Shown: one piece after another, positions 14,754 to 29,665 of the stretch
Position numbering within the stretch: position 1 is the first letter of the stretch
Layout of the letters: every line of letters starts with the position of its first letter
Assembly (NCBI GenBank): GCA_964291675.2
Contig: OZ219865.1
Location: 128,001-192,000, forward strand
Direction of reading: 5' to 3'
DNA length: 64,000 nucleotides
Source of the DNA: Alphaproteobacteria bacterium
Lineage (GTDB): Bacteria; Pseudomonadota; Alphaproteobacteria; MPNO01
Notes under the pieces: model-generated
Told to the model about the DNA's origin: nothing
Databases searched by the model: none
Seen by the model: the letters and a program-made list of their open reading frames with translations, nothing else
Translations under genes and position numbers: made by a program

Positions 14754-16162
14754 CTATCGGGACGCTCCGAATGCACCGGTGAGATCATTGCGCTCCAGCG
14801 TCCCGGCGGCGCCCTCGTGGTTGCGGCCGACGAAGATGCCGGTCAGCCTGCCGGCATCGCCGCCGGTCTCCCGGAAGGTGTTGCCGCTGACCGCGATGGT
14901 GTAAACGAGATCCCCGTCCCGCCATTGCGCGCCGGACCCCGCGGGGCCGGGCCCGGCGTCAGCCGACCACGACTCCAGGTCAGTGAAGCCGGCGGTGCCG
15001 GTCATGGTAGCGAGGTCCACGTTGATTGCGGCGTCGCCAATGACGGGGGCCGCGCTCGGGGTGAAGCCAACGAGCGACCCCTCCCAGGTCACCGTGCCGG
15101 AGAGCGCCGGGTTGTCCGCCAGCGGCTGGTAAGGCCAAAATCCGTAGGCCCACGGCTCGGCGTAGCCGTTGACGAACCGCACGCCAAACGCGGCGTGCTC
15201 GCCGTCGCCGACGATGTGCGTCGACATGCTTTCCCAAGGCCCGAAAGTCGAAGGCGACGCGCCGTCCAGCAGCCCACTATAGAGCGCGCGCATCGCCTCG
15301 CGATCCACAGGGTAGAGCAGCGAGGTTGGCTGCGGGATACCCTGCTGCGGGCTGTAGATGTCCGGTCCGGCTTCCATGATGGAGTCGAACGCTGCCGAAA
15401 CATGACCGGCGTGCAGGCCCATCGCGTGCAGCAACTCATCCGCGAGCAGGATCGTCGCTTCACGGTCGCCGCGACTCGTATAGGCCCTGTCGACGCTGAC
15501 CATGGCGAATTCGAGAGCGCCGTCAGGCCCCGGTATGGGGGTTGTGCTGCCCCAACCGCGGCCTTCGAGCGACGGCAAGAAGCCGATATAGATGCCCGTG
15601 GCGCTGCCCCCGAGCCAGGGAGGGAGGGATGGCGCATCCGAGGCGACCGTCATCCTGTAACCTTCCGGCAGCGCGGCGTTCACCAGCCGGACCGCGCGAA
15701 TGACGCGCTGGTAGTCCGACTCGTCGCCTTCGAGCCCGAAGCGAACGACCGGCGGTGTCTCCCATCGAAACCCGGGATCGGCGACGGCTTGCGACAGGTA
15801 TCGCCGGAGCGTGCTCAGGCCCACGCCGTCATTCAGCCGGCCGTAGCGTATGCCGATCCCGTCGCGCTCGCCTGCGGTTGGCAGGGCGCTGAGATGGCGC
15901 CCCCGCTGATCGGCGCCGACCAGGAACAGCTCGTGCCCCTGATAGATTGGCATGTGCCGCGCATCGGCCCTCGTAGGTGGTTCCACGCCGGAGAACAAAT
16001 AGCTGCCGATGGCGGTATAGGGGAACGGCAATTCTGCCACGACGGGCTGCGATGGCGGGTCGGTCGGGGAGGAACCGGCCGGATCGTGTCGCCGCCTCCG
16101 TCCCCGCCGCAAGCTGATAGCAGCAGAATCGCACCTGACGAAATCAGGGTGTGCTTGTTCAT
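14754..16162 (-). CDS. Putative lipoprotein with metzincin-like motif and C-terminal beta-barrel (frameshift at about 16066-16069)
   Basis: Signal peptide and lipobox MNKHTLISSGAILLLSAC are in one frame. The body is in the next frame, with DELLHAMGLHAGH and a terminal G-F-G...AAGTLERNDLTGAFGASR. Confidence 0.65.
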
Positions 16163-16608
16163 GGGTCATCTCCTGCCCTCGAACCCGGCGAGCAACTCCA
16201 CGCCGGGCGTCCTTTCGCCGAGCGTGCCGCCGACTTCTCGTGCGCGGGCCTGACGAAAGCCCCCGCACACGCCCAACGGCGTCGGCGAAGCAGTTGCCGT
16301 AGACGCTGATTTCTTGGTTCAGGCTGGCGCACCGGAAAGGGTCGGTGGCGTCGCCCGTCGGGTCGGAGGACTACTCCTGTCTTCGACAACCGGTCGGACA
16401 CGGTGATCAGATATCTATCACAGTACGAATCGAACAACAGTATACTCAACCCAGGGCTGATAACCACCTCACGCGCGCTGACCCGAGCCAGGTTTGGATT
16501 GAGGCACTTGGTGAGGGAGCTGACCGACAGTGCCGGTAAGGTCCTGTTTCCGAAGTTCGATGCATGGCAATGCCCTGCCACATAACTCGTCACGGCCGGA
16601 CTCTTTCC

Positions 16609-16910
16609 ACTGCTGTCCGGTTCAGGTGAGTTGGACGGGGTGCAAGCCCTTGGTATGGGAGCATTTTCGGTGCATCGGTTGGATCGAGACACCGATTTCG
16701 GCACACTCGCACCTGCCGTCCTTGTCCCCCCGCTGTCACCCCGGACCTGTTCCGGGGCCCAGGGTCACAGGCACCGCCCTCGCGCGGCTTTCCCCGGAAC
16801 GGGTCCGGGGCAGGCCTGGACCCCGGAACAAGCCGGGGGTGACAGCGGGGGCGGAGATGTTGTTGCTCATGGTCGCGGAGCCCGAGTTGAAGGCTAAACC
16901 GGACAGCAGG
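16609..16910 (+). mobile_element. MITE-like element with ACTGCTGTCCGG terminal inverted repeats, inside a degenerate REP
   Basis: actgctgtccggtt ... aaaccggacagcagg; ends homologous to the copies at 22230 and 27368-27975; degenerate flanks ggactctttcc/ggacttgtttc. Confidence 0.7.
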
Positions 16911-17221
16911 GGACTTGTTTCGGGCATCCCTCTCCACCGGCCGCTCTGCGGGCGGCGGGCTCTGGTGATGGCTGGAACAGGTCCGGCCATGACTCGGCGG
17001 GGACAGGGAGCCAAAACGCACGAGCTTTGGAACCGGGCACACCAAACCGTATCCGGTTTGGACTGAAGTGCATCGCACTTCCCGGCAGTACGCCGGTATT
17101 TCGCTTCGCCAATCGTGACGGTGGGCGGGCAGGCCGAACGGTTCCATCCGGGACGGAGAGGTCGTAACATCGCTGCCCCAGCGGGAGTGCCTCCGATCCG
17201 AACCCCGGGAACGCGGCAACC

Positions 17222-17860
17222 ATGACCGACGGCGCCAACGCGGTCGCGCGCGCGGCGCCGATCGACCGGGCGCGGGCGCTGCTGCCGGGGATCGTCTCGC
17301 GGGCGGCGGAGGCGGACCGGATCGGGCGGCTGCCCGCGGCGACCCAGGCCGAGCCGATGGAGGCCGGGCTCTAGCGGATCCATTTGCCCCGGCGCTACGG
17401 CGGCGACGAGTCGGACTACGCGCTACAGGTCGACCTCGCCGCCGAGCTCGGCACCGCCTGCGGCTCGACCGCCTGGGCGCATTCGGCGGTCGCCGGCCAC
17501 AGCCGGATGCACGGCATGTTCGATGCCCGCGCCCAGGACGCGGTCCGGGGCGAGCACCCGGACGCGCCGATCCCGGGCGCGACGCCGAGCGCCGATTCGC
17601 GCATCGGGCCGGTCGACGACTGGCATGCCACCGGGCTGCGCGGCACCGGGTCGCGGTCGACGGTCTGCCGCGACCGGTTCGTCGCCGAGGGCTGGACGAT
17701 CCGCTCCGAGGCGTGCCGCGGCGGGCCCGCGCAAGGCAGCGCCGTCGACCCGGGCGCGCTCCACCGGATGCCGCCGTTCGCGCCGTTCGGCAAGGGATCG
17801 TGGCGCCGGCCGTGGGGATCGCGCGCGGCGCGCTGGCGCTGCCCGGGATGGAGGTCGGGA
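17222..17860 (+). pseudogene. Degraded HsaA-like flavin monooxygenase
   Basis: MTDGANAV...GRLPAATQAEPMEAGL*RIHLPRRYGG...ACGSTAW...DDWHATGLRGTGS. It has an in-frame stop and large internal deletions relative to the paralog at 3706. Confidence 0.8.
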
Positions 17861-17866
17861 TCGGGG

Positions 17867-18931
17867 TTACCGCGCGGATCGGGAGCGCCGGCCGCCGAAC
17901 ACGAAGCTCTGGTTCGGGTCGATGGCGATCCGCACCTTCTCGCCGACGCGGTGGCGGACCAGCCCGGGCAGGCGGGCGTGGAAGTGGTCGTGGCCCGGGT
18001 CGCCGAAGCGCTCGCTGAGCCGGATCACGCTGGAGGCGCCGGCGAAGTGGACGCTGCAGACATGCAGCTCGGCGCCGGCGCGGCCGCCGCCCGGCGCGAG
18101 CCGCAGCCCGTCCGGGCGGATCAGCACCTCGACCGGCTCGCCGTCGCCGAAGCCGGGATTGGCCAGCGCGCCGATGCGGGTCCGGATCTCGGCGCCCACG
18201 ACCGTGCCGGGGACCCGGTTGACGGCGCCGAAGAAGGCGGCGGTGAACGCGTCGACCGGGGCGGCGTAGAGCTCGTCCGGGGTGCCGGCCTGGACCATCG
18301 CGCCGTCGCGCATCAGCACGATCCGGTCGGCCGATATCAGCGCCTCCTCGGGGTCGTGGGTGACCATCAGCACCGTGACCCCGGCATCCTTGAGGATGCG
18401 CACCGTCTCCTCCCGCAGCCCGGCGCGGAGCGAGGCGTCGAGGCTGGAGAACGGCTCGTCCAGCAGCACCACCCGCGGCCGCGGCGCCAGCGCGCGGACC
18501 AGCGCCGCCCGCTGCTGCTCGCCGCCCGACAGCATATGCGGGTAGCTGTGCGCGAGATGGCGCATATGGACCCGCTCCAGCAGCGCCACCACGCGGCCGG
18601 CATCGCCCGCCTTCTGCGCCCGCGTCATGCCGTAGGCGATGTTCTGCGCCACCGTCAGATGCGGGAACAGGGCGATGTCCTGGAACAGGAACCCGATGCC
18701 GCGCTCGGGCGGCGGCACCATCCTCGCGGCGTCCGACAGCACCCGCCCGGCGATGCCGACCCGGCCGGCGGCCGGCCGCTCCAGCCCGGCGATGGCGCGC
18801 AGCGTCGTCGTCTTGCCGCAGCCCGACGGGCCGAGCAGGCAGACCAGCTCGCCCTCCGCGATCTCCAGAGAGAGGTCGCGCACCGCCCGTTTCGCCCCGA
18901 AGCTGACGCTCAGCCCATCGAGTCTCAGCAC
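17867..18931 (-). CDS. Fe(III)-type ABC transporter ATP-binding protein (FbpC/SfuC-like)
   Basis: GPSGCGKTT, FQDIALFPHLTV, LSGGEQQR, LLDEPFS, VTHD. Confidence 0.92.
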   Translation of the reverse strand: MLRLDGLSVSFGAKRAVRDLSLEIAEGELVCLLGPSGCGKTTTLRAIAGLERPAAGRVGIAGRVLSDAARMVPPPERGIGFLFQDIALFPHLTVAQNIAYGMTRAQKAGDAGRVVALLERVHMRHLAHSYPHMLSGGEQQRAALVRALAPRPRVVLLDEPFSSLDASLRAGLREETVRILKDAGVTVLMVTHDPEEALISADRIVLMRDGAMVQAGTPDELYAAPVDAFTAAFFGAVNRVPGTVVGAEIRTRIGALANPGFGDGEPVEVLIRPDGLRLAPGGGRAGAELHVCSVHFAGASSVIRLSERFGDPGHDHFHARLPGLVRHRVGEKVRIAIDPNQSFVFGGRRSRSAR

Positions 18932-18987
18932 CGCGCCATACCCGTCGATCCACCCCCGCCGACGCCGAACACACCCGTCCCCATGGT

Positions 18988-19006
18988 GTTATTGATAATC
19001 AATATC
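18988..19006. promoter_or_regulatory. Fur box
   Basis: GTTATTGATAATCAATATC matches GATAATGATAATCATTATC at 16 of 19 positions and lies upstream of the iron ABC ATPase. Confidence 0.75.
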
Positions 19007-19072
19007 ACCGTGGGGACGGGTGGGGAAGGGGTGAAGGGCTTCTTTTTTTCGCCGGGAGAGAGCGATACGGGG

Positions 19073-20191
19073 TCAGGCGGCGGGGCCGCCCCAGACCGCC
19101 TCGGCGATCCGGAGGACGAGCTCGAGCTTGCGCCTGGTGTCGTCGGGGCCGACCGGCTGGCCGCCGCCGCCGGCGGACGAGAAGCCGCATTGCGGGGAGA
19201 TGGCGAGGCGCTCCAGCGGCGCGTGGGCCGCCGCCCGGTCGATGCGGCGCCTGACCGCGTCCCGGTCCTCCAGCGCCGGCGTCTTGGTGCCGATCAGCCC
19301 GAGCGCGGCGGTCTTGCCGGCCGGCAGGAAGCGGAGCGGCGCGAAATCGCCGGCGCGCGGGGTGTCGTATTCGAGCAGCAGGAGGTCGACGTCGAGCCCC
19401 CCGAAGACGCGCTCGGCGATCGGCTCGTAGCCGCCCTCGGCCATCCAGCGCCCCTTGAAATTGCCGCGGCACATGTGGAGCCCGACGAACATCCCCGCCG
19501 GCCGCTCGGCCAGGACGGCGTTGATCAGCGCGACATAGGCGTCGGTCAGCGCGTCCGGATCCTCGCCGCGCGCGCGCACGCCCTCCCGCGCCGCCGCGTC
19601 GCAGATGCAGGCCAGCGCCGTGTCGTCGAGCTGCACGTATCGGCAGCCGGCGGCGGCGAGCTCGGCGATCTCGGCGCGGTAGATCCGCACCAGATCCGCG
19701 AAATAGGCGTCCCGGTCGGCATAGGCGGCGGGCGCGAAGCTGCGCGGCCCGAGGAAGAAGTGGAGCACCGGCGGCGAGGCGATGGTCGCCTTGGGCAGGC
19801 CGCGCGGCGCGAGCCCGGCGAGGAAGCGGTAATCGCCGGCGACGATGGGGCGCGCGCGTTCCAGCCGGCGCGCCGCGTATGGCGAGGCGGCGACGCCGGC
19901 GCTGCCCGATTCGGAGCGGAAGCCGAGCACCCCCTCGCGGCGCAGCCCGAACCCGTCGAGCGCGTCGATCACCCCGGCCGACCAGGAGCGGCGGCGGAAC
20001 TCGCCGTCGGTCACCGCGGGCAGGCCGAGCCCGTCCTGGAAGGCGACGATGCCCCGGATCGCCGCGTCCTCGGCGGCGCGCAGCCCGTCGGCGTCGAGCC
20101 GGCCTGCGCGATGCGCCCGCACCGCCTCCAGCAGCGCGTCGGGGCGGACGAAGCTCCCGACATGCTCGGCGCGGAAGGGGGGTCGCGTCAT
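19073..20191 (-). CDS. Cobalamin-independent methionine synthase catalytic-domain family protein (MetE-like)
   Basis: PFRAEHVGS, TDGEFRR, QLDD, HMCRGN, LEYD, SPQCGF. Confidence 0.88.
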   Translation of the reverse strand: MTRPPFRAEHVGSFVRPDALLEAVRAHRAGRLDADGLRAAEDAAIRGIVAFQDGLGLPAVTDGEFRRRSWSAGVIDALDGFGLRREGVLGFRSESGSAGVAASPYAARRLERARPIVAGDYRFLAGLAPRGLPKATIASPPVLHFFLGPRSFAPAAYADRDAYFADLVRIYRAEIAELAAAGCRYVQLDDTALACICDAAAREGVRARGEDPDALTDAYVALINAVLAERPAGMFVGLHMCRGNFKGRWMAEGGYEPIAERVFGGLDVDLLLLEYDTPRAGDFAPLRFLPAGKTAALGLIGTKTPALEDRDAVRRRIDRAAAHAPLERLAISPQCGFSSAGGGGQPVGPDDTRRKLELVLRIAEAVWGGPAA

Positions 20192-20266
20192 ATGGAGGCC
20201 TCCGGTGGCGGCGCTCCCAGGCTATAGTCGCGCGCGCATGGGCGGGCAAATGCGGCGGAGGAGAGC

Positions 20267-21148
20267 ATGCGGCTCGGCGGCACGGTGGGCGGGATCGGCT
20301 GGCAACGGATCGTCGAATCGGAGGGGCCCGATTTCGACGTGTTCTTCCTGCTGCCCGACGCGGACGAACGCAGCCTCGCGCCGCACCGCGCCTGGCTGGA
20401 GCCCCGCTTCCTCGATCCGGTATCGAACCGGCTGGTGATGGCGATGCAGTCCTATCTGCTAAAGACCCGCCACCACGCGATCCTGGTCGATGCCTGCGTC
20501 GGCAACGACAAGGAGCGCCGCTTCCACCCGCCCTGGGCGCGGCGCACATCGACCCGCTTCCTCGACAACCTCGCCGCCGCCGGTCTTGCGCCGGAAGACG
20601 TCGACTTCGTGATGTGCACCCATCTGCATGCCGACCACGTGGGCTGGAACACGCGGCTTGCGGGCGGGCGCTGGGTGCCCACCTTCCCCAACGCGCGCTA
20701 CGTCTTCGCGCGCACCGAGTACGACCACTGGATCGCGCTCAACAAGGGCGGCAAGAAGTATTCCGACGGCTGCATCGACGACAGCGTGCTCCCCGTCGTC
20801 GAGGCCGGGCAGGCCGAGATCGTCGACGATCGCTGGGCCTTCGACGACGAGATCCGCTTCGCCCCCACCCCCGGCCACACCCCGGGCCATGTCGCGATCG
20901 AGCTTTGCTCGCAAGGCGCCCGCGCGGTGCTGTCGGGCGATGTCTGCCACACCCCGCTGCAATGCCGCGAGCCCGGCTGGAGCGCCGTGGGCTGCGCCGA
21001 CCGGGCGCTCTCGGCGGCGACCCGGCGGGCGTTCCTCGAGGCGCATTGCGATACCGACACCCTGGTCATGACCGCCCACTTCCCCGCGCCCTCGGTCGGC
21101 TTCGTGCGGACGCGCGGCGATGCGTTCGACTTCGCCTATGACGAGTAG
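20267..21148 (+). CDS. MBL-fold metallo-hydrolase
   Basis: THLHADHVGWN, TPGHTPGH, GD, AHF. Confidence 0.9.
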   Translation: MRLGGTVGGIGWQRIVESEGPDFDVFFLLPDADERSLAPHRAWLEPRFLDPVSNRLVMAMQSYLLKTRHHAILVDACVGNDKERRFHPPWARRTSTRFLDNLAAAGLAPEDVDFVMCTHLHADHVGWNTRLAGGRWVPTFPNARYVFARTEYDHWIALNKGGKKYSDGCIDDSVLPVVEAGQAEIVDDRWAFDDEIRFAPTPGHTPGHVAIELCSQGARAVLSGDVCHTPLQCREPGWSAVGCADRALSAATRRAFLEAHCDTDTLVMTAHFPAPSVGFVRTRGDAFDFAYDE

Positions 21149-21223
21149 GGTCGGGGCGAGTATTCGCTTGAAAAGAGGTCGAGGGAAGGGCAGACTCGGC
21201 CACGCCACCGGCAAGGGTGTGCC

Positions 21224-21454
21224 GTGACCCCCGAGTTGATCGCAATTCTGGCAGTCGGTGTAGCGCTGGCCGGCTTGGTCCTGCAGGGCCAGCGCGGCCT
21301 CGGTGCGCGCATGGACCGTCTCGACGGGCGCATGGACCGGCTGGAAGCGGAGATGAAGGAAGTCCGCGACCGCCTCGGTCGTCTCGAAGGCAAGGTGGAT
21401 TTCCTGGAGAGCTATATCGTCCGCCGCGACGAGGCGGGCGCGCCGGCGGAGTAG
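21224..21454 (+). CDS. Small membrane-anchored coiled-coil protein
   Basis: Hydrophobic N-terminus ELIAILAVGVALAGLVL followed by MDRLDGR/LEAEMKEVRDR coiled coil. Confidence 0.7.
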   Translation: MTPELIAILAVGVALAGLVLQGQRGLGARMDRLDGRMDRLEAEMKEVRDRLGRLEGKVDFLESYIVRRDEAGAPAE

Positions 21455-21659
21455 CCGGCGGGGCCGCTGCGGCGGCACCGGTCCCCGGTCGTGACGGCGC
21501 ATTTGCCGGCGCCCCCGGTCGGCTTCGTGCGGGCGCGCGGCGAAGCCGTCGACCTCGCCTGTGACGGGTAGGGCGGGGCAGGTATTCGCTTGATGGTAGG
21601 CCGCGAGTGCGGCAGAGTGTTCCGCGCGGGTGTCCCCACGCCGTCGCGGAGCAGATCGA

Positions 21660-22031
21660 GTGACCCCGGAACTGATCGCGATCCTGGCAGTCGGCGTAGC
21701 GTTGGGCGGTGTGATGCTGCGCAACCACCACGGGCTCAGCACGCGCATCGACGGCCTCGACGCCCGCATGGACCGCCTCGACGGGCGCATGGACCGTCTC
21801 GACGGGCGCATGGACCGGCTGGAAGCGGAGATCAAGGAAGTCCGCGAGCGGCTTGAAGCGGAGATGAAGGAGCTTCGCGAGCGGCTGGGGGCGGAGATCA
21901 AGGAAGTCCGCGAGCGGCTGGAAGCCGAGATGAAGGAGGTCCGCGACCGCCTGAGCCGTCTCGAAGGCAAGATGGATTTCCTGGAGAGCCATATCGTCCG
22001 CCGCGACGACGCGGGCGCGCCGGCGGAGTAG
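21660..22031 (+). CDS. Paralogous membrane-anchored coiled-coil protein with expanded 7-aa and 11-aa repeats
   Basis: Same N- and C-termini as 21224-21454, with tandem 21-bp and 33-bp DNA repeats. Confidence 0.72.
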   Translation: MTPELIAILAVGVALGGVMLRNHHGLSTRIDGLDARMDRLDGRMDRLDGRMDRLEAEIKEVRERLEAEMKELRERLGAEIKEVRERLEAEMKEVRDRLSRLEGKMDFLESHIVRRDDAGAPAE

Positions 22032-22229
22032 CCGGCCCAAGCGCCGCCGTTCGTCGTTGCGACCGCAGCGCCGTCAGGCAAGGGGCGGAGAAATCTCGTC
22101 CCCACCGCCCCCTGCGTCATGGCTGGCCCCCGGGGCAAGCCCGGGGGCGTTCCGGCCCTCCACGCGGCCGCTCCGCCCGCAGGTCGGACGGGACGGGTGG
22201 CGACGCCCATGGTTGCCCGGATCAAGCCC

Positions 22230-22558
22230 ACTGCTGTCCGGTTTGGATGAGCTGGACCGGGCGCAAAGCCTCGGTACGCGCGGATTTCCGGCCCATCCGC
22301 CGGATCGGGACACGGATCGCGACACGCGCGACGCGTCGTCGCATGCCGCCGTCGCCCCCGGCCCTCCCTCGTCATGCCCGGACTTGATCCGGGCATCCAA
22401 GGGCGCCGCCGCCCGTCTCGTCGGACCGTCGTGCGGGCGGAGAGGCCGCGTGGATGGCCGGATCAAGTCCGGCCATGACGTAGGGGTGACAGCGGGAGCG
22501 GAGATGCAGATGTTCACGGGCGCGGAGCCCGCGCCGAAAATCTAAACCGGACAGCAGT
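22230..22558 (+). mobile_element. MITE-like element with 11-bp target duplication inside a REP palindrome
   Basis: TIRs actgctgtccggttt / aaaccggacagcagt; perfect direct flank GGATCAAGCCC at 22219-22229 and 22559-22569; internal REP pair. Confidence 0.8.
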
Positions 22559-22724
22559 GGATCAAGCCCGGGCATGACGAAGAGGGAGCGCAGGGCGACG
22601 GCGGAACGCGACCACGCGACGGGCCGGGTCGACATGACGGGAGAGGACGGCCGGCCGGCGGCGATGCGAACAAAGCTAGAACATCTTGGCCGGCCCGGGC
22701 GACATGTGCTACAGCAGGGTCGCC

Positions 22725-23564
22725 ATGGCCGACAACTCCGGCATCGAATGGACGGATGCTACGTGGAACCCGGTGACGGGCTGCACCAGGATCGCGCGCG
22801 GCTGCGACAACTGTTACGCGGAACGCTTCGCCGAGCGCTGGCGGGGCGTTCCGGGCCACCCCTACGAGCAGGGCTTCGACCTCCGCCTCTGGCCGTCCCG
22901 GCTCGACCGGCCGGAGCGCTGGCGCAAGCCGCGCATGATCTTCGTCAACTCGATGAGCGATTTGTTCCACAAGCGGGTGCCGCGCGGGTTCGTCGACGAC
23001 GTGTTCGACCGGATGGAGACGACCGACCGCCACACCTACCAGGTGCTGACCAAGCGGAGCTCGCGCATGCGGGACTACCTGCGCCGGAGGTATCCCGGAG
23101 GCGCGGCGCCGGCGCATATCTGGTGCGGCGTGTCGGTCGAGGATCGCCTGGGCCGGGCCAGAATCGACCATCTGCGAGCGGCGCCGGCCGCGATCCGCTT
23201 CCTGTCGATCGAGCCGCTGCTGGGTCCGCTGGGCGACATCGACCTGGACGGCATATCCTGGGTCATCGTCGGCGGCGAGAGCGGGCCGAAGGCGCGCCCG
23301 ATGGAAGACGGCTGGGTTTGCGACATACGCGACCGCTGCGCGGCTGCGGACGTGCCGTTCTTCTTCAAGCAATGGGGCGGACCGACGCCGAAGGCCCGAG
23401 GCCGGGAGCTTGAAGGCGTGCAGCACAACGCCATGCCGGGCCGTGCGCGGAAGGAGGACTGCCATGCCCTTCCGATGGCATCCCGGCCTCCGCCGGAGAT
23501 CGAAGAGCGCGGCAAGGCAAGGCTTCGCGTCTTGCCCCGCGTCGGTCCGGGCTTTTGGGGATAG
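22725..23564 (+). CDS. DUF5131 / phage Gp37-Gp68 family protein
   Basis: [62 protein letters not shown]. Confidence 0.92.
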   Translation: [279 protein letters not shown]

Positions 23565-23623
23565 GTTGACGGGCGGCCGGCTGGCGCGGATCGGCGACGG
23601 GAATGCCGCCCCGCCCCCTTCCG

Positions 23624-23755
23624 GCATGCCCGGACTTGCCCCGGATCACAGTCCGGGGCTTGATCCGGGCATCCATGGGCGCCGCCACCGCTACCGACCG
23701 GCGGCCGTGCGGGCGGATCGGCTGCATGGATGGCCGGATCGAGTCCGGCCATGAC
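23624..23755. repeat. REP-like palindromic cluster
   Basis: gcatgcccggactt..ggcttgatccgggcatcca ... tggatggccggatcgagtccggccatgac. Confidence 0.75.
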
Positions 23756-23886
23756 GGATGAGGTTCGTTTCGCCTCCCGTTCGTTAACCTATCTTTGTAA
23801 GCCCCCTACAGTCGAACTGACGGCGGGGAGAAACGCACGGGATTTCCCCACTCGCGCTCCCCAAAGGGGGCAAGTGGAGTCTTCGT

Positions 23887-26800
23887 TCACGCGCCTGTCC
23901 TCGCCCCCGTCATCCCCAATATCGCCGCGATCCGCCGCGCGGTGTCGGTGAAGTGCTGCACCTCCTCCGGCCGGAGCGGGCGGGCGAGGATGTCGCGCTC
24001 GCGGTAGGACAGCCATTTCTTCAACACCTGGTAGCCGCCGAGGCGGTAGGTCCAGACGGCCGCCGGGACGTTGCGCCAGAACGCCTCGGCGTTGAGGTAG
24101 ATGTCGAACGTCCTCCCGCCGAGCGCGGGGAGGGTGTCGCCCAGCGCCGCGCGCTCGTCGGGCGAATAGGCGCGCTGGGCGGCGCGGCCCTGGCCCGGCA
24201 TCACCGCGTCGCCCTGGCCGTAATGGCCCCAGCCGGCGGTGACCGCGAAGTCCCCGCCCGCCATGTTGCGCCCGCCGGTCGTGGCGGGGACGGCGATGGC
24301 GGCGATCTCCGGCCGCAGCGGCGCCTGCGTGACGCCCGGGACGGGGGTGTCGGGATCGAGCAGCGCCGCAAGCTCGCGCCCGCGCGCCGCCGAGTCCGCG
24401 AGCGCCTCGGCCGCGCCATCGTCTCCGCCGTCCGGCCAGCCCGGCAGCGGGATGCGCGGCCACTCCATCCTGAGCCCCCGGCATTGGCCTCGCGATAGGC
24501 GGGATCGTGCAGGGTGGCGAGGACGTGGTGGAACAGGTCTTCGACGTCCAGGCCGAGGCGGTCGAGATAGCGTTGCGCGGTGCGAGACAGGTTGGGGCGG
24601 CGTTCTCCGTCACCGTCGCTTCCGATTCCTTCTTCATGGAACCAGGCGGGGAAATAGCTGGAAAGCCCATTGCCGAAGTTGTCGGCCATATGTCGGACCA
24701 AGGTCCCGCGTGAAAAATCTTCCTTCGCTTCCCGCTCGCGCGCTTCGATCCAGACATTCTCTTCGAACACTTGAAGTCGGTAATCGGCGCGCTTTTCGTC
24801 GAGCAGCTTTGTGTCCTTCTCCCAATAGAGCCACCTGTTGTCGAAGGGCCGATAGGCGAAGGGGGCAAAGCCAGCCTCGTCCGGCCCACCGCGTTTCAAC
24901 AAGGCTTCGCGCACCCCGCGGGCGTCGAACCGGGCGCTGGTCTTCATGACCGAGGGATAGCGTGCAGCGATATCGCTGTGGCTCAGGCGTTCGTCGAAAT
25001 AATCGGCAACCCGCGACCGGAGCCGGTTGGCGTCGATATCGACGAGAAACCCGTCGCGGCTGGTCTTGACACCGGGAAACGACACCGGAAACAGCTCGGG
25101 CAGCGCCGGCCAGTCGAACCAGTCCGCGCTCACCGCCGTCCGCACGAAGGGGAGGCCGAGAGGCAGGAGAGGCTCGACGTCCGCGTAAAGCACATCCGGC
25201 TCCGCCTCCGCCGTGGCGATGAGGTCCGCCGGCTTTGACTGCCCCCACAGGTGCCGGAATTCGACAGTGTCGGCCGCCTCGTGCGCCGCCTTGCGCAGCA
25301 GCGTCGCGATGGCGGTGCCGACCTGGATGCCGACCGGATCGCCCTCGGTCGAGAAGATGCTGGGGTCGGGCGTGCCGTCCGGTGCGACCTTGCCGGTCTT
25401 GTACTTGTCGCCGTTCAGGCAGTCGATGCGGATCGCGTCGAACGCCTCCAGGTAGCGTTCCCGCATCCCCGTGAAGGAGAGTCCGTCGAGCCACGAGTAG
25501 TTGGAGATGAAGCAGACCACCCCTTGGCCGGTCTTCTCCGCGATGCGCCGTTCGGCCATGCGGAAGAAGCGCACATAGAGGTCGTTCAGGCCCTGCCCGT
25601 CGGGCCGGCGCACCCGCTTCGTCGTGCGGTAGGCTTCGGAGAGCTCGCGCTCCTCGTCCACCGCCATTCCGGCGAAGCCGTTGTAAGGCGGGTTCCCCAA
25701 GATCACGAGAATGGGACGATTCCGTTTCACACGATTGGCCCGCTCGCGCTCGGCCGCCATTTCCGGGAACGCGACCATCTGTTTTTCTACGTCCGTCGGC
25801 TCCCATCCGGTGAGCGCGTTGGTGAGGAACACGCCGGCGCGTTCGGTGTCGTCGTCGGCGAACGGGGCGTCGAGCTCCTGCATGGTGAGCCCGACCTGGA
25901 GATGGGCGACGACGAAGGGGGCGGGCATGATCTCGAAGCCGAACACGCGTGTCGTGGCCGCCTGCTTCACCCGCGCGCCGGCGAGCGCGCCGAGGCCCTG
26001 GCCTTCGACGTTGGCGGCGATGCGGCGCAGCACCTCGGCCAGGTAGGCGCCGGTGCCGCAGCACGGGTCGAGCACGTAGACGTTGTCCGCCGCCAGCCCC
26101 TCCGGGATGGCGAGGTCGTCCTTCAAGGCCTTGTCCACCCGGGCGACCATGTAGCGGACCACCTCGCGCGGCGTGTACCAGACGCCGAGCTGCTTCCTGA
26201 GCGCCGGGTCGAATTCCTGGAGGAAGGGCTCGTAGAAATAGGGCACCGCCTCGCCCTCGTCGAAGCGGGCGAAGAAGGCGCCGCGGTCCACCCGGTCGAG
26301 CGCGGCGGCGGTCCAGTCCAGCACCTCGACGAGGCCGAGCGGCTGCAGCCGGCCGGGGTCGGAAAGCTGCTGGAACAGCGCCCGCAGCACCGGCGCGCGC
26401 AGGTGCCAGACCGCCTCGTGCCAGTTGAATTTTTCCGTCGGCCGCGGCGTCTGGCGCGCCCACAGCACCCAGGCCGAGAACACGCCGTAGAACAGGGTTT
26501 GCACCAGCGTCGAATGGAAGAAGCGTTCGCCCTTCTCCGCTTCGAAGCGGACGCCGAGCGCCTCCTCCAGCGCCGCGCGCACCGCCCGCAGCGCCGGCGC
26601 GTCGCCCGCCGCCTCGACCCGGGCGAGGCCGTCGCGGGCGTAGGAGGCGAGCAGCCAGGCGAGGTCCTTCGGTTCCGCGAGCGCGGCGCTGTGCGACAGC
26701 GCGCGGGCGAGGTACTCGCCGAGCCCCGCGCCGACCTCGTGGGCGAAGGCGCGCGGCTTCTCGACCCGCTGCCAGAATTCCTCCGCGCTCCCGGCGAGCC

Positions 26801-27239
26801 GAAGGGTTTCCAGCTTCGCCGGCCTGCCCGCCGCGTCGTCGGCGACCAGCACGAAGTCGCGCAGATTGGTCGCCAGCACCAGCCGGTAGCGGCCCCAATA
26901 GCGGCTGACCTGGCGACCCTCCGCCGTCCGCCAGGCGTCGTCGTCCGCCGCCTTGACCTCGACCGCGCCGCGCTCCGGCAACTGCCCCTCGCGCGGGCGG
27001 CCCTTCTGCACCTGCCGGGCCGCGAAAAGGCCGAAATCGGGACGGCCCGCGCCCTGGTCGGCGAGCTCGGCGACGCAGAACACCTTGGGCTTCAGCGCCG
27101 CGCCGACCGCGTTCAACAGGTTGCGGAGCGCGGGATGGTACGAAAGCTCCCCCGTCGCCCCGCCGCTGCCGCGGATGCGTCCGAGATCGGCGAAATACGC
27201 CTCGACCGCCGCCGTCAGCTTCGCGCTGGTCCCCGCCAT
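23887..27239 (-). CDS. Single-polypeptide restriction-modification enzyme (Type IIG/ISP-like N6-adenine MTase), frameshifted near the 3' end
   Basis: N-terminal PD...EVK nuclease-like motif, GVWYTPREVV, motif I VLDPCCGTG and motif IV GNPPY. The ISP-like C-terminus (WPRIP, GGYQVLKKWLSYRE) is in another frame after the C5 run at 24475-24479. Confidence 0.85.
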
Positions 27240-27367
27240 GGCGCCGTTGTGGCCGAGCGCGGCGCGACTCGCAAGGGCGGTCCCTTGCCTCCCGTCATTT
27301 CAACCCGAGCCGCGAGGAGGGCGACGGCTCTCTCCCCGCCCCGCCCATGGATGCCCGGATCAAGTCC

Positions 27368-27975
27368 GCTGCTGTCTGGTTTAGATTTTCGGCGCGGGCT
27401 CCGCGCCCGTGAACATCTGCATCTCCGCTCCCGCTGTTACCCCTACGTCATGGCCGGCCCCCGGATCAAGTCCGGGGGTGATCCGGCCATCCACGCGGCC
27501 TCTCCGCCCGCACGACGGTCCGACGAGAGGGGCGGCGGCGCCCATGGATGCCCGGATCAAGTCCACTGCTGTCCGGTTTAGCCTTCGACGCGGGTCGCGC
27601 CCGGCGTTCCCCGCCCAGCGCTATGCCTCCCCCATCGTCATGCTCGGACTTGATCCGGGCATCCACTGGCGCCGCCGCCTCTCCCGACGGGGCGTTGTAC
27701 CGGTGGCGCCAGTGGTTGCGCGGATCAAGTCCGCGCATGGGTGGCCGGATCAAGTCCGGCCATGACGGGGTGGGGGTGGCGGTGGAGGAGCACGGGAGCC
27801 GGGTGCGGCCCGCCCCGCCCGTGGGTGCCCGGAACGAGGCCGGGGTGACAACGGAGGGGCAGGGACGGCAAGTGCGGGCGTGCGGCGATCCGTGTCCCGA
27901 TCCGGCGGCTGGTCCGGAAATCCGCGCGTACCGAGGCTTTGCGCCCGGTCCAGCTCATCCAAACCGGACAGCAGT
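27368..27975 (-). mobile_element. Composite/nested MITE-like element(s) within REPs
   Basis: TIR-like starts at 27368 (gctgctgtctggttt) and 27565 (actgctgtccggttt), one end at 27975 (aaaccggacagcagt). Flanks ggatcaagtcc/ggatcgagtcc; ends are the reverse complement of the 22230 element ends. Confidence 0.72.
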
Positions 27976-28129
27976 GGATCGAGTCCGGGCATGACGGGGC
28001 GGGAGGCATGGTGCTGGGAGCGGGCCGCACCCGGTTCGCCATGCACCGCCCATGCGCGCCACCCCGCTTCAACCCGCCGCCCCCCGATGGCATGATCCGG
28101 CGGCACGCATTCGAGCGGGAGAGGCGGCG

Positions 28130-29665
28130 ATGCCGGTGAGCACGATCGGGGAGATTCCGCGCCAGGCGGCGGCGCGGTTCGGCGACAAGACGGCGCTGAT
28201 CTTCGAGGGGCGGGAGGTCTCGTTCGCGGAGATCGACCTTCTCGCGTCGCGCGTGGCGGGCGGGCTGCGCGCGCTCGGCGTCGAGGCGGGCGACCGGGTG
28301 ACGCTCTATGCCCAGAACAGCGTCGAGTGGATCGCGAGCTACTACGCGATCGCCCGGGTGGGCGCCGTGGTCAACCCGATCAACGTCATGCTGACGCCGG
28401 ACGAGGTGGCCTATGTGGTGAAGGATTGCGGCGCCAGGGTGCTGTTCACCACCGCGGAGCGGGCCGCGCCGATCCTGCCGCTCAAGGCGGACGGCGACCT
28501 CGCCGAGATCGTCGTGTTCGGCGAGGCCGACGGCGCCGCCTCGTTCGACGAGATCGCGGACTCGGGCGCAAACGAGTTCGAGCCCGAGGCGGTCGATCCC
28601 GAATCGCTGTCCACCATCTGCTACACCTCGGGCACGACGGGGTTTCCCAAGGGGGCGATGCTGAGCCACCGCTCGGTGGTGCTGAACGCGGCGGTGACCG
28701 CGGCGATGAACATGCGCACCGAGCACGACGTGCAGCTCACGGCGCTCCCCTGCGCGCATGTCTATGGCGGCACGCTGATGAACCTCAACTTCCTGTTCGG
28801 CTCGACGCTGGTGCTCTACGAGAAGTTCGACGCGGGCGATGCGCTGCGAGGCATCCATGATTTCGGCGCCACCATCACCGACGGCGTGCCGACGATGTAT
28901 CTCTACATGCTGGCGCATCCCGAATTCGAGAGCTTCGACCTGTCCTCGCTCACCCGCTCGGTGACCGGCGGGCAGACCATGCCGGTCGCCAAGGCGGAGG
29001 AGTGGCGCGAGCGCGCCGGCTGCGAGGTCTACGAGCTGTGGGGCATGACCGAGCTTGCCGGGCCCGGGCTGATGCAGCACTGCTACGGCGAGAACCGGCT
29101 GGGCTCGGTCGGCATCGAGATGTTCTACCACCGAGCCCGCATCGTCGACCCGGAGGACGCGTCGAGGGAGCTGCCGACCGGCGAGGTGGGCGAGCTGATG
29201 TTCCGGGGCCCGTTCGTGATGATGGGCTATTACGGCAACGAGACGGCGACGCGCGAAGCGATCGAGCCCGACGGCTGGCTGCACTCCGGCGATCTCGGCA
29301 AGGTGGACGAGGACGGCTACTTCTATATCGTCGACCGCAAGAAGGACATGATCCTGACCGCCGGGTTCAACATCTACCCGGCCGAGATCGAGCGGGTGAT
29401 CTCCGCCCACCCGGCGGTCGCCATGGTCGGCGTCGGCGCCAAGCGGGACGAGGCCAAGGGCGAGGTCGCCAAGGCCTATGTGGTGCTGAAACCCGACCGC
29501 GAGGCGGGCCCGGACGAGCTGATCGGCTTCTGCCGCGAGCGCCTCGCCGCCTACAAGGTGCCGCGCGAGATCCAGATCGTCCCCGACCTGCCGACCACCT
29601 CGACCGGCAAGATTTTGAGGCGCGAGCTGCACACGCTGGAACAGGGCGGAGCGACGCTCCCATGA
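28130..29665 (+). CDS. AMP-binding acyl-CoA ligase (class I adenylate-forming enzyme)
   Basis: YTSGTTGFPKG, WGMTE, GWLHSGDLG, DRKKDMI, LPTTSTGKI. Confidence 0.93.
   Translation: MPVSTIGEIPRQAAARFGDKTALIFEGREVSFAEIDLLASRVAGGLRALGVEAGDRVTLYAQNSVEWIASYYAIARVGAVVNPINVMLTPDEVAYVVKDCGARVLFTTAERAAPILPLKADGDLAEIVVFGEADGAASFDEIADSGANEFEPEAVDPESLSTICYTSGTTGFPKGAMLSHRSVVLNAAVTAAMNMRTEHDVQLTALPCAHVYGGTLMNLNFLFGSTLVLYEKFDAGDALRGIHDFGATITDGVPTMYLYMLAHPEFESFDLSSLTRSVTGGQTMPVAKAEEWRERAGCEVYELWGMTELAGPGLMQHCYGENRLGSVGIEMFYHRARIVDPEDASRELPTGEVGELMFRGPFVMMGYYGNETATREAIEPDGWLHSGDLGKVDEDGYFYIVDRKKDMILTAGFNIYPAEIERVISAHPAVAMVGVGAKRDEAKGEVAKAYVVLKPDREAGPDELIGFCRERLAAYKVPREIQIVPDLPTTSTGKILRRELHTLEQGGATLP

Follow-up and report, generated by a model that had tools for sequence, protein, structure and literature searches.

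Repeated elements in the window

The stretch of DNA analysed here (the window, 64 kb in length) holds three loci at which a short element, putatively a MITE, is embedded in a REP palindrome. The elements and their flanking duplications are listed below, with the strand where one applies.

16598..16608, left target duplication of copy A, degenerate, with 3 mismatches to 16911-16921
16609..16910, plus strand, putative MITE copy A, 302 bp, diverged and old, with its left (transposase-5'-type) end at 16609; placed by its terminal repeats (TIRs) and by alignment of the left arm to IS ends
16911..16921, right target duplication of copy A, compared with 16598-16608
22219..22229, left target duplication of copy B (GGATCAAGCCC), identical to 22559-22569
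22230..22558, plus strand, putative MITE copy B, 329 bp, 'L..Ra' type: left arm, two REP hairpins (22374-22396 and 22454-22476) and Ra right arm; placed by TIRs, hairpins and arm alignments
22559..22569, right target duplication of copy B, identical to 22219-22229
27357..27367, outer left duplication of a composite element, with 1 mismatch to 27976-27986
27368..27564, minus strand, Ra-type end module of 197 bp (TIR with 1 mismatch, Ra arm, REP, spacer, half REP), the outer part of a composite putative MITE; the architecture recurs elsewhere in the genome
27565..27975, minus strand, complete putative MITE, 'L..Rb' type, 411 bp, left end at 27975, REP hairpins at 27717-27737 and 27742-27762; placed by TIRs, flanks and hairpins
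27976..27986, right duplication (GGATCGAGTCC) of the 27368-27975 element; the same 11-mer occurs once in an unoccupied REP of genome G009

A search with the terminal-repeat 13-mer CTGCTGTCCGGTT, allowing up to 2 mismatches, gave seven matches in the window, at 16610, 16897 (minus), 22231, 22545 (minus), 27369 (1 mismatch), 27566 and 27962 (minus), against a mean of 1.25 in shuffled sequence, where 0 of 100 shuffles reached seven. At each locus the left and right flanks together restore a single REP hairpin (..ATGCCCGGA-N5-TCCGGGCAT..). The 11-mers flanking copy B are identical, 27976-27986 differs by one base from either 27554-27564 or 27357-27367, and the flanks of copy A differ at three positions. 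REP-type hairpins of differing sequence also lie inside the elements, two in copy A, two in copy B and at least three in 27368-27975. The first-pass annotation of this DNA had reported shared TIRs at three loci, a position at REP centres, flank matches graded from perfect through one mismatch to degenerate, and differing REP hairpins in the interiors, and all four observations held when recomputed. An Rfam search of positions 16000-28500 gave no match. Plasmid hits to one stretch of the window were limited to ABC-transporter genes of about 69% identity.

Copies A and B share 62% identity. The copy A insertion is also found, with the same flanks, in the related genome G010 (L004 501-2153; compared by eye), and there its duplication pair is perfect. 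The 'L..Ra' type has four copies in the genome with pairwise identities of 92-98.5%, and the 'L..Rb' type has 12 copies with a median pairwise identity of 95%.

The family in the genome and the genus

Genome-wide, about 100 TIR ends were found, belonging to simple forms of 302-413 bp and composites of about 610 bp. The search and flank table that had been proposed as a check on the initial reading came out in its favour: a loose half-REP motif adjoins 86 of 101 ends, and a strict version, whose genome-wide frequency is 6.7e-5 per position, adjoins 65 of 101. Among 22 adjacent plus/minus TIR pairs, the flanks showed 0 mismatches in five, 1 in six, 3 in three and 5 in eight. In four of the eight pairs with five mismatches both flanks represent the same side of a REP, so that the two TIRs are not partners, and 5 of the 11 pairs with three or five mismatches are explained by composite or nested structures. 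A fitting partner was absent for four TIR pairs (C2 1203322, 1898317, 1931892 and 3170557). These were left out of a re-pairing test of 14 simple pairs and 5 outer composite pairs, in which 8 of the 19 were perfect and 7 had one mismatch. Re-pairing of the flanks gave on average 3.31 perfect pairs against the 8 observed (P 0.005) and 28.3 total mismatches against 19 (P 0.001), P values that are indicative only because the pairs were chosen after inspection.

Of 11 other genomes of the genus, 10 contain the exact TIR; outside the genus 29 genomes were searched, and 4 of them contain it, none more than once. The elements would be classed as MITEs on sequence features: they are short, carry no transposase gene, occur in many copies, and have the TIRs and the target duplication of an IS. 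As in a REP-targeting IS, insertion is at one fixed position of the REP hairpin, with REP fragments on both sides.

Autonomous relatives with the same ends

The ends and the landing site of the window elements are shared by intact elements of 1.26-1.27 kb from the sister species G002, from Rhizobium plasmids and from many other Alphaproteobacteria. The G002 element, from the same genus as the window, is 1257 bp long, contains a 389-codon open frame with a 375-residue transposase match, and is flanked by a perfect duplication inside a REP. Its counterpart on a plasmid of Rhizobium sp. CIAT894 (1272 bp, annotated 'IS4 family transposase') has a perfect duplication in a Rhizobium palindrome, and the R. 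etli copies carry the NCBI annotation 'IS4-like element ISRel1 family transposase'. Over about 48 nt, the left arm of the MITE can be aligned with the transposase-5' ends of these IS; for the right arms the alignment covers about 25 nt. G002 holds the nearest intact relative in the genus, and its transposase and that of Rhizobium share only 49-50% protein identity.

The transposase of the autonomous partner belongs to the IS4 family by domain, profile and motif. The G002 protein matches NF033592 at 245.8 bits (cut-off 115), PF01609 DDE_Tnp_1 at 113.2 bits (cut-off 23) and PF14294 DUF4372 at 70 bits. The complete YREK motif, Y-(2)-R-(3)-E-(6)-K, is a criterion of the family in the available text of PMC2266710; the corresponding residues Y282, R285, E289 and K296 do not vary between the proteins of G002 and Rhizobium. 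The same source (PMC2266710, Table 1, as available) gives ends of 5'-CA------T and direct repeats of 8-10 bp for the IS4Sa-like subgroup, and the ends C-A...T-G, the T at the ninth base and a 9-bp duplication in 3 of 3 informative cases suggest membership of that subgroup here.

In the window's own genome, none of 13 candidates scored in a protein search passed as a cognate transposase, and the best local tblastn match (E 0.03) lay on a different IS. This bears on the present mobility of the MITEs and not on their identity. The assembly consists of 2 contigs and has a completeness of 93.7%, so that it may lack a replicon. In the closest relative, G009, an IS present in several copies ends like the MITEs and is unassembled, its ends breaking off at contig edges; pattern searches returned no interior contig for it, and the PF01609 matches of G009 are located elsewhere.

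Target site and length of the duplication

The target, probably 9 bp long, has its centre at the dyad axis of the REP hairpin and comprises the loop and, to either side of it, two base pairs of the stem. Since this site is symmetric, the element is found in both orientations. The duplication had first been read as 11 bp. However, 65 of 66 full-length relatives have C as the left and G as the right adjoining base, and C adjoins 100 of 102 ends among those listed for the window's genome. The inner nine bases are identical in 40 of the 66 relatives, with C and G adjoining in 40 of 40. In three cases where the target has outer bases other than G or C, the outer positions differ between the two copies while the inner nine are duplicated. 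Based on these three informative insertions only, the duplication probably measures 9 bp and not 11. It looks like 11 bp because REP targets have G and C outside the nine bases and the element itself ends in C...G.

Across other Alphaproteobacteria 79 loci were collected, 64 of them scorable, and a perfect apparent 11-mer was found in 35. In 31 of these 35 the hexamers just outside the two copies are complementary to each other at five or all six positions, which marks a palindrome centre; two lie in non-palindromic DNA.

Nesting, composites and empty sites

At C1 316817-317850 one MITE lies inside the internal REP of another. Removal of the 610-bp inner element and one duplicate restores a 413-bp MITE without gaps, identical to a canonical copy at 395 of 413 bases. 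The composite architecture seen in the window (Ra, 165-183 bp, then Rb..L) is found again at C1 740039-740629 and C2 1927348-1927845, in both cases with perfect outer duplications. Self-targeting is thus real, with the internal REPs of the MITEs serving as landing sites, and composite forms move as units. That the elements carry REPs and so make their own target sites had been proposed from the window alone, and the nested insertion and the composites bear it out.

Empty REP alleles in relatives, which had been named as a further check, were found for one site and not for another. Where the window has the 27368-27975 element, G009 has one intact REP with GGATCGAGTCC, together with an extra REP-spacer unit of about 85 bp; given that unit, the 197-bp outer module may have come with the inner element or separately. 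For copy B, G009 offers no clean empty allele, as it lacks the whole REP and about 90 more bases. No orthologue of the copy A left flank was found in five other genomes of the genus.

An IS110-family element in the left TIR

Outside the window, all 8 copies of an IS110-family element occupy one and the same point in the left TIR of the MITE. Its transposase matches PF01548 DEDD_Tnp_IS110 (78.5 bits), PF02371 Transposase_20 (82.1 bits) and NF033542 'IS110 family RNA-guided transposase' (265.8 bits, cut-off 140); the presence of both domains and site-specific insertion without a long duplication assign it to that family. A search for its guide RNA gave only isolated, chance-level 7-mer matches to the target and the junction and no Rfam match, and the Rfam search of loci L001 and L039 returned only a chance-level miRNA match (E 0.056, far below the gathering score).

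The closest analogues are IS4321 and IS5075 of the IS1111 group, whose targets are the terminal repeats of Tn21-family transposons; they too are IS with a DEDD transposase that enter another transposon's terminal repeat at a single fixed point. The present case differs in that the host is the end of a MITE or IS4-family element and in that the IS scores as NF033542.

Two other larger structures associated with the TIR were considered and rejected. A TIR variant (..CCGGTC + TCGACTTTCG..) was considered as a possible terminus of a larger IS, but only REP-rich repeats lie beyond it. A 2271-bp TIR-bounded unit of G006 with a 511-aa transposase (DUF772 and DDE_Tnp_1, nearest IS1182) is a different 1963-bp IS inserted in the right arm of a MITE.

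Origin of the elements

The window elements are very probably MITEs of an ISRel1-like IS4-family IS (a family of about 50) that targets the REP dyad, carries REPs and targets itself. They would be short, putatively non-coding derivatives that retain the 15-bp TIRs (CACTGCTGTCCGGTT...) and, beyond them, roughly 30 bases on the transposase-5' side and roughly 10 on the 3' side, with a middle consisting of a REP-spacer-REP unit captured from the host genome. A DDE transposase acting in trans would bind both ends, excise the element and join it to a target whose strands are cut 9 bp apart, a model of binding, excision and staggered joining established for the IS4-family transposases of Tn5 and Tn10. 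Because the MITE carries REPs, it provides new landing sites for its own family; nested copies would arise first, and composites would follow when the transposase uses one outer and one inner end. Activity would span the time from before the split from G010 (copy A) to after the split from G009 (the 27368-27975 copy). In the absence of a cognate transposase from the assembled genome, the copies there are at present immobile relics, or orphans.

Alternatively, the MITEs could have been cross-mobilised by IS-X, the other REP-seeking IS4-family element of this genome (C2:3561619-3562964, with an interrupted copy at C1:341852-347611). Among the IS4-family transposases found in the window's genome, that of IS-X alone shares the landing site of the MITEs. 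IS-X is flanked by an apparent 11-bp duplication, GGACTTGATCC, at the REP centre, and in G010 and G008 it is inserted in REPs inside MITEs. However, its TIR (CATAAGCGCTAACTTGT) is unlike the MITE ends (CACTGCTGTCCGG), its transposase matches the MITE-type transposase over only 52 residues (29% identity, E 0.03), and genuine partners with identical ends are known from other genomes, all of which makes mobilisation by IS-X highly unlikely. Still more improbable is that the IS110-family (DEDD) transposase belongs to the autonomous form, with the MITEs as its deletion derivatives. Eight units of 2.1-2.3 kb, bounded by the TIRs, do contain that gene, and several have both TIRs and a flanking duplication. 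Yet the 1761-bp DEDD element always starts at one fixed point in the left TIR, which indicates insertion into a MITE, and it stops just before the normal left arm; moreover, its eight copies are 99.5-100% identical while the arms of the host MITEs differ, and the MITE ends are already accounted for by the IS4-type partners. DEDD transposases are not known to make duplications of 9-11 bp.

It is just as hard to credit that the loci are mosaic, BIME-like REP clusters formed by recombination or by a REP-associated tyrosine transposase, with the flank repeats representing halves of neighbouring REPs. The interiors are indeed generic REP-spacer-REP units, and 96 of 211 alignments spanning at least 80% of the copy B interior lie more than 450 bp from any TIR (both strands counted, overlapping alignments unmerged). 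Such clusters would nevertheless leave unexplained the covariation of the flanking repeats with the local REP variant, the empty REP in G009, the gap-free reconstruction of a nested insertion, and the occurrence of the same ends around IS4 transposase genes in many genomes, including two perfect duplications outside palindromes.

The initial observation is confirmed, and the interpretation given by the first-pass annotation is partly supported. The elements were rightly called non-autonomous, and the suggested IS4-type DDE transposase is found between the same ends in G002 and Rhizobium; an autonomous copy, named by that annotation as a thing to look for, exists there and was not found in the assembled genome of the window. 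The impression of an undescribed element did not survive, as the parent is annotated by NCBI as 'IS4-like element ISRel1 family' and the REP targeting of ISRm22 is in print (PMC1525189, PMC2266710, as far as their available text goes).

Relation to known REP-targeting elements

The ISRel1-family elements of R. etli and its relatives share with the window elements the terminal repeat ACTGCTGTCCGGTTTAA... and the duplication at the centre of a host palindrome. They are 1.26-1.27 kb long and encode a transposase with DUF4372 and DDE_Tnp_1, whereas the window elements have no transposase gene and contain host REP units instead. A search of the paper library by name matched only ISRel10 and ISRel26 and gave no published account of ISRel1 target choice.

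ISRm22 of Sinorhizobium meliloti (IS4 family, IS4Sa subgroup) is, according to the available parts of Tobes and Pareja 2006 (PMC1525189) and De Palmenaer et al. 2008 (PMC2266710), inserted in all its copies at the palindromy axis of REPs, and its hybrid, non-matching repeats are attributed there to recombination between copies. Compared by description only, it resembles the window family in being an IS4-family element with the REP axis as its target; it differs in its 6-bp direct repeats, and the available text of PMC1525189 describes no MITEs. REP targeting by an IS4-family element was already published in 2006 (PMC1525189, available part), and no new kind of mobility is involved here. On Sinorhizobium plasmids, the closest hits of the transposase of G002 bear the annotation ISRm16 family, at 41-43% identity.

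Other REP-targeting elements are IS1397 and ISKpn1 (IS3 family) and IS621, ISPpu9, ISPpu10 and ISPa11 (IS110 family), a list given in part by the available text of PMC1525189 and otherwise general background. They share with the window family a fixed insertion point in the REP hairpin but use other transposase families and chemistry, with duplications of 0-4 bp, and no REP-carrying MITE derivative of them is described in that part of PMC1525189. A literature search found no paper treating MITEs, REPs and the IS4 family together, and a search on intergenic mosaic elements in Rhizobium gave nothing relevant.

Implications

The MITE family supplies names and a mechanism for a large share of the intergenic repeats of the genus. 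Its parent belongs to an Alphaproteobacteria-wide clade of IS4-family elements united by a conserved end and a common landing site, the REP dyad, and this clade is a natural system for the recognition of a symmetric, hairpin-prone target by a DDE transposase. "11-bp" duplications at REPs can be 9-bp duplications extended by the element termini. In the IS110-family element there is also a natural case of a recombinase, RNA-guided by its family, that is aimed at a transposon end. Perhaps, and we put this forward tentatively as the less secure part of the picture, the MITE acts as a vehicle for REP hairpins that multiplies landing sites for its own family and for at least one other IS4-family element, while its left end serves as a dedicated IS110 target, giving a chain of parasites at three levels (REP, then IS4/MITE, then IS110). 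If true, this chain shapes the repeat landscape of the genus.

MITE ends and their REP context

The first-pass annotation described a transposase-less miniature element (MITE) that targets and carries REPs, the common hairpin repeat of this genome. The three window stretches it named match their description when the sequence is read, and its anatomy proved right within the window: ends, REP-centred sites and REP-bearing interiors were all confirmed. The 13-mer CTGCTGTCCGGTT has 7 matches in the window when up to 2 mismatches are allowed, against a mean of 1.25 in the shuffled window, and none of 100 shuffles gave 7.

The proposed genome-wide search for the terminal repeat and tabulation of its flanks extended this picture. 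The genome holding the window (G000; 4.8 Mb, 69% G+C, two contigs, C1 and C2; window at C1:128001-192000) contains about 100 genuine MITE ends (107 raw hits when 1 mismatch is allowed, 101 retained following inspection). A strict half-REP motif, with a background frequency elsewhere of 6.7e-5 per position, adjoins 65 of the 101 ends, and a looser version adjoins 86. Outward flanks fall into two classes, ..(G/T)GGATGSCC plus the 11-mer (42 ends) and ..GTCATGSCC plus the 11-mer (38 ends), with 21 ends unclassified; the two classes are opposite sides of one REP hairpin. Ten of the 11 other genomes in the genus contain exact copies of the terminal repeat, 3 to 55 each; of 29 genomes searched outside the genus, 4 contain it, with no more than one copy each.

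Element anatomy

In G000 the terminal repeat is adjoined either by one conserved left arm (L) or by several types of right arm (Ra, Rb, Rc).

Element forms and their examples in the window
22230-22558 (copy B): simple L..Ra element, ~329 bp
27565-27975: simple L..Rb element, 411-413 bp
16609-16910 (copy A): diverged relative, 302 bp, 62% identity to copy B

Pairwise identity among the L..Rb copies (n = 12) has a median of 95% (range 83-99.3%), and the four L..Ra copies share 92-98.5%. Every window copy contains REP hairpins with the layout NNNCCGGA-N5-TCCGGNNN and differing stems. Copy B has a REP-spacer-REP interior that is generic in G000; of its 211 alignments (at least 80% coverage, both strands, overlapping ones unmerged), 96 are over 450 bp away from the nearest terminal repeat. 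The unit found inside the MITEs (e.g. window 27441-27564) also occurs by itself in ordinary intergenic DNA, including the orthologous site in G009, the closest relative (G009:C85, about 19140-19272), so MITE interiors resemble fragments captured from REP clusters.

The autonomous partner

A protein search of G000 for a cognate transposase yielded no candidate that passed, and the best local tblastn match (E 0.03) lay on a different IS. Eight 2.1-2.3 kb units with the same ends encode an IS110-family transposase (PF01548 + PF02371; NF033542, 265.8 bits) and were rejected as the partner, all being insertions into MITEs: the eight copies are one 1761-bp element (99.5-100% identity) inserted at one fixed position in the left terminal repeat, and the arms of the host MITEs differ among themselves. 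A 2271-bp unit in the genome G006 was also rejected, being a MITE that carries a separate IS1182-like IS.

In G009, many contigs terminate 16-50 bases within a repeated element that starts with the MITE terminal repeat. Across loci L006, L007 and L009-L012, at least 11 contig starts and 4 contig ends lie within 16-50 bases of the terminal repeat, and these repeats continue into two IS-type ends of a multi-copy, autonomous-looking element, the interior of which is absent from the G009 assembly. One G009 end aligned along its full 50 bases to Rhizobium plasmids, at 82-86% identity. In Rhizobium sp. CIAT894 the matched end belongs to a 1272-bp element with terminal repeats ACTGCTGTCCGGTTTAAAT that encodes a 381-aa 'IS4 family transposase' and lies inside a Rhizobium palindrome with the same 11-mer on both flanks; NCBI annotates the R. 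etli and Rhizobium sp. K102 protein as 'IS4-like element ISRel1 family transposase'. Searching the genus with the Rhizobium protein recovered an intact 1257-bp element in G002, which has ends ATTGCTGTCCGGTTTAA and lies within a REP, where GGAACAAGTCC is perfectly duplicated. Its transposase shares 50% identity with that of Rhizobium, retains the residue spacing of the YREK motif (Y282, R285, E289, K296), contains DUF4372 and DDE_Tnp_1, and scores 245.8 bits against NF033592 (cut-off 115). The left arm of the MITE can be aligned over ~48 nt with the transposase-5' end of each of the three IS elements (G002, Rhizobium, G009); for the right arms the alignment covers ~25 nt. The initial guess of an IS4-type element was therefore correct, since the G002 protein passes NF033592 and the same ends flank IS4 transposases, and the autonomous copy it called for exists intact in G002 and CIAT894, not in the G000 assembly.

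Target duplication in G000

Among 22 adjacent +/- end pairs in G000, the flanking 11-mers are identical in 5, differ by one base in 6, by three in 3 and by five in 8. Four of the last eight have the same REP side on both flanks, so these ends are not partners. They lie internally in composite or nested structures, the outer ends of which do match.

Outer end pairs of composite or nested structures
C1 740039/740629: duplication perfect
C2 1927348/1927845: duplication perfect
C1 316817/317850: duplication perfect

Taking 14 simple and 5 outer pairs together, the duplication is perfect in 8/19 and has one mismatch in 7/19. Random re-pairing of the same flanks gave 3.31 perfect duplications on average versus the 8 observed (P 0.005) and 28.3 total mismatches versus 19 (P 0.001), P values that are indicative only because the pairs were picked post hoc and four without partner fit (C2 1203322, 1898317, 1931892, 3170557) were left out. 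Duplicated flanks follow the local REP variant and orientation, with GGATCAAGCCC on both sides of copy B and GGACTTGGTCC on both sides of C1 879057-879469; one duplicate copy must therefore lie outside the element. Five of the seven one-mismatch duplications differ at position 6, the centre of the 11-mer, by A/G (C/T on the other strand), which is also the commonest REP-loop polymorphism.

Relatives across the Alphaproteobacteria and the length of the duplication

A scan of species-representative genomes found relatives at 79 loci (49-80% identity to the G002 protein) in Rhizobium, Agrobacterium, Rhodopseudomonas, Bradyrhizobium, Caulobacter, Hyphomicrobium, Roseibium and many uncultured Alphaproteobacteria. 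Thirteen had no terminal-repeat pair in the retrieved stretch and 64 were scored, with element sizes of 1242-1455 bp. The flanking 11-mer is perfect in 35 of these, has one mismatch in 5 and two to ten in 24. In the 35 perfect cases the six outer bases are complementary at 6/6 positions in 24 and at 5/6 in 7, which places the element at a palindrome centre; L076 and L080 have perfect duplications in non-palindromic DNA. This scoring indicates that REP-centre insertion is conserved throughout the clade and is not particular to G000.

The 11-bp length first assigned to the duplication needs correction. Among 66 full-length relatives, C precedes 'ACTG' on the left in 65, and G follows 'CAGT' in 65; in G000 the adjacent base is C at 100 of the 102 ends listed. 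The inner nine bases of the duplication are identical in 40 of the 66. In three of these 40 (L069, L072, L079) the outer bases of the target are not G or C, and there the outer positions mismatch between copies and the bases touching the element remain C and G. Based on these three cases, the simplest reading, and very probably the right one, is that the element has the termini 5'-CA...TG-3' and a target duplication of 9 bp. An apparent length of 11 bp arises because REP targets (..CCCG/GATCAAGTC/CGGG..) supply G and C just outside. Such ends and length would agree with what De Palmenaer et al. 2008 (PMC2266710, Table 1) give for the IS4Sa type, 'CA------T, direct repeats 8-10'.

Self-targeting, age and empty sites

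At C1 316817-317850, a 610-bp composite occupies the REP within an L..Rb element; once it and one duplicate copy are subtracted, the remaining 413 bp show a gap-free alignment to a canonical copy (395/413 identical). C1 545889-546960 has three successive 330-bp left parts, each stopping at a half REP, and then one complete element. The window composite at 27368-27975 reads Ra end, REP-spacer-half REP and complete Rb..L element, an architecture repeated at two further loci with perfect outer duplications. Such forms are expected from insertion into a REP within a MITE followed by use of an outer and an inner end. The nested copies show the first step, insertion of an element into the REP of another element; in the second, the transposase may later pair one outer with one inner end to give a composite.

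In by-eye comparison, copy A shares its flanks with a MITE in G010 (L004 501-2153), where the duplication GGACTTGTTCC is perfect; the two copies in the window have diverged since. The insertion thus predates the split of the two species. Of the empty REP alleles anticipated in relatives, one was found, at the site of the 27368-27975 composite, where G009 has one intact REP with GGATCGAGTCC, identical to the right-hand 11-mer of the window, in flanks of 92-93% identity. G009 also carries an extra REP-spacer unit there, so the 197-bp outer module may have arrived either with the inner element or separately. At copy B the expectation failed, as G009 lacks the REP altogether at that site and offers no clean empty allele.

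Other insertion sequences at MITEs and REPs

The 1761-bp IS110-family element (C2:899365-901125, L001, and 7 further G000 copies; also L019 and L020 in G008) has an ORF of 461 codons that matches NF033542, 'RNA-guided transposase'. Its junction in the MITE left terminal repeat is ..CTGTCCGGTT/TGCCGTG...GACGG/TTTAT.. in 8/8 copies, and none of the eight lies in a MITE right end. The element is presumably RNA-guided; a guide RNA was looked for in it and none identified. Its closest analogue is IS4321/IS5075 in the ends of Tn21. With the MITE left end as fixed target, this element, outside the window, is the most interesting by-product of the analysis.

A second IS4-family element with unrelated ends (TIR CATAAGCGCTAACTTGT; NF033592, 142.5 bits) occurs at C2:3561619-3562964, C1:341852-347611 (with an interruption of ~4.4 kb) and G010 L004 651-1983. 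It is inserted at REP centres with an apparent 11-bp duplication GGACTTGATCC, and REPs inside MITEs are also used. The 1963-bp IS of G006 encodes a 511-aa transposase (DUF772 + DDE_Tnp_1; best match IS1182, sub-threshold) and is present at 100% protein identity in at least 72 places (e.g. L021 125-2087, L023, L033, L034), some copies forming head-to-tail arrays spaced 1965-1967 bp.

Mechanism and standing against known systems

Ends, duplication, landing site, both orientations, nesting and autonomous relatives can be read directly. The mechanism we infer from what is established for the IS4-family transposases of Tn5 and Tn10. A transposase dimer would bind both element ends, the element would be excised via hairpin intermediates, and the strands of a symmetric, deformable target would be attacked 9 bp apart; a symmetric site of this sort is provided by the REP dyad. 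The copies in G000, whose assembly lacks the enzyme, may currently be immobile.

The MITE family is real and well defined, and the kind of element is already known. The claim that it was undescribed needs correction, as the parent is annotated 'IS4-like element ISRel1 family' and REP targeting by ISRm22 is published. In the text of Tobes and Pareja 2006 (PMC1525189), all copies of ISRm22 (IS4 family) lie at the axis of palindromy of S. meliloti REPs, and REP-seeking families include IS3, IS110, IS4, IS256 and IS5. The text of De Palmenaer et al. 2008 notes a 'spectacular apparent insertion specificity' of some IS4-subgroup elements and ISRm22. Our literature search, covering one library of papers, found no account of the ISRel1 target or of REP-carrying MITEs of this clade. 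A more distant relative, of the ISRm16 family (L130; S. meliloti pSymB, CP130047.1 183654-185575), shares 42% identity with the transposase of G002. Its ends are CAGGGCTGTCCGGGG, and it sits in the middle of a different palindrome, where 9 bp (CGCAAGCGG) are duplicated. Based on this element, palindrome-centre targeting may extend beyond the ISRel1-like clade.
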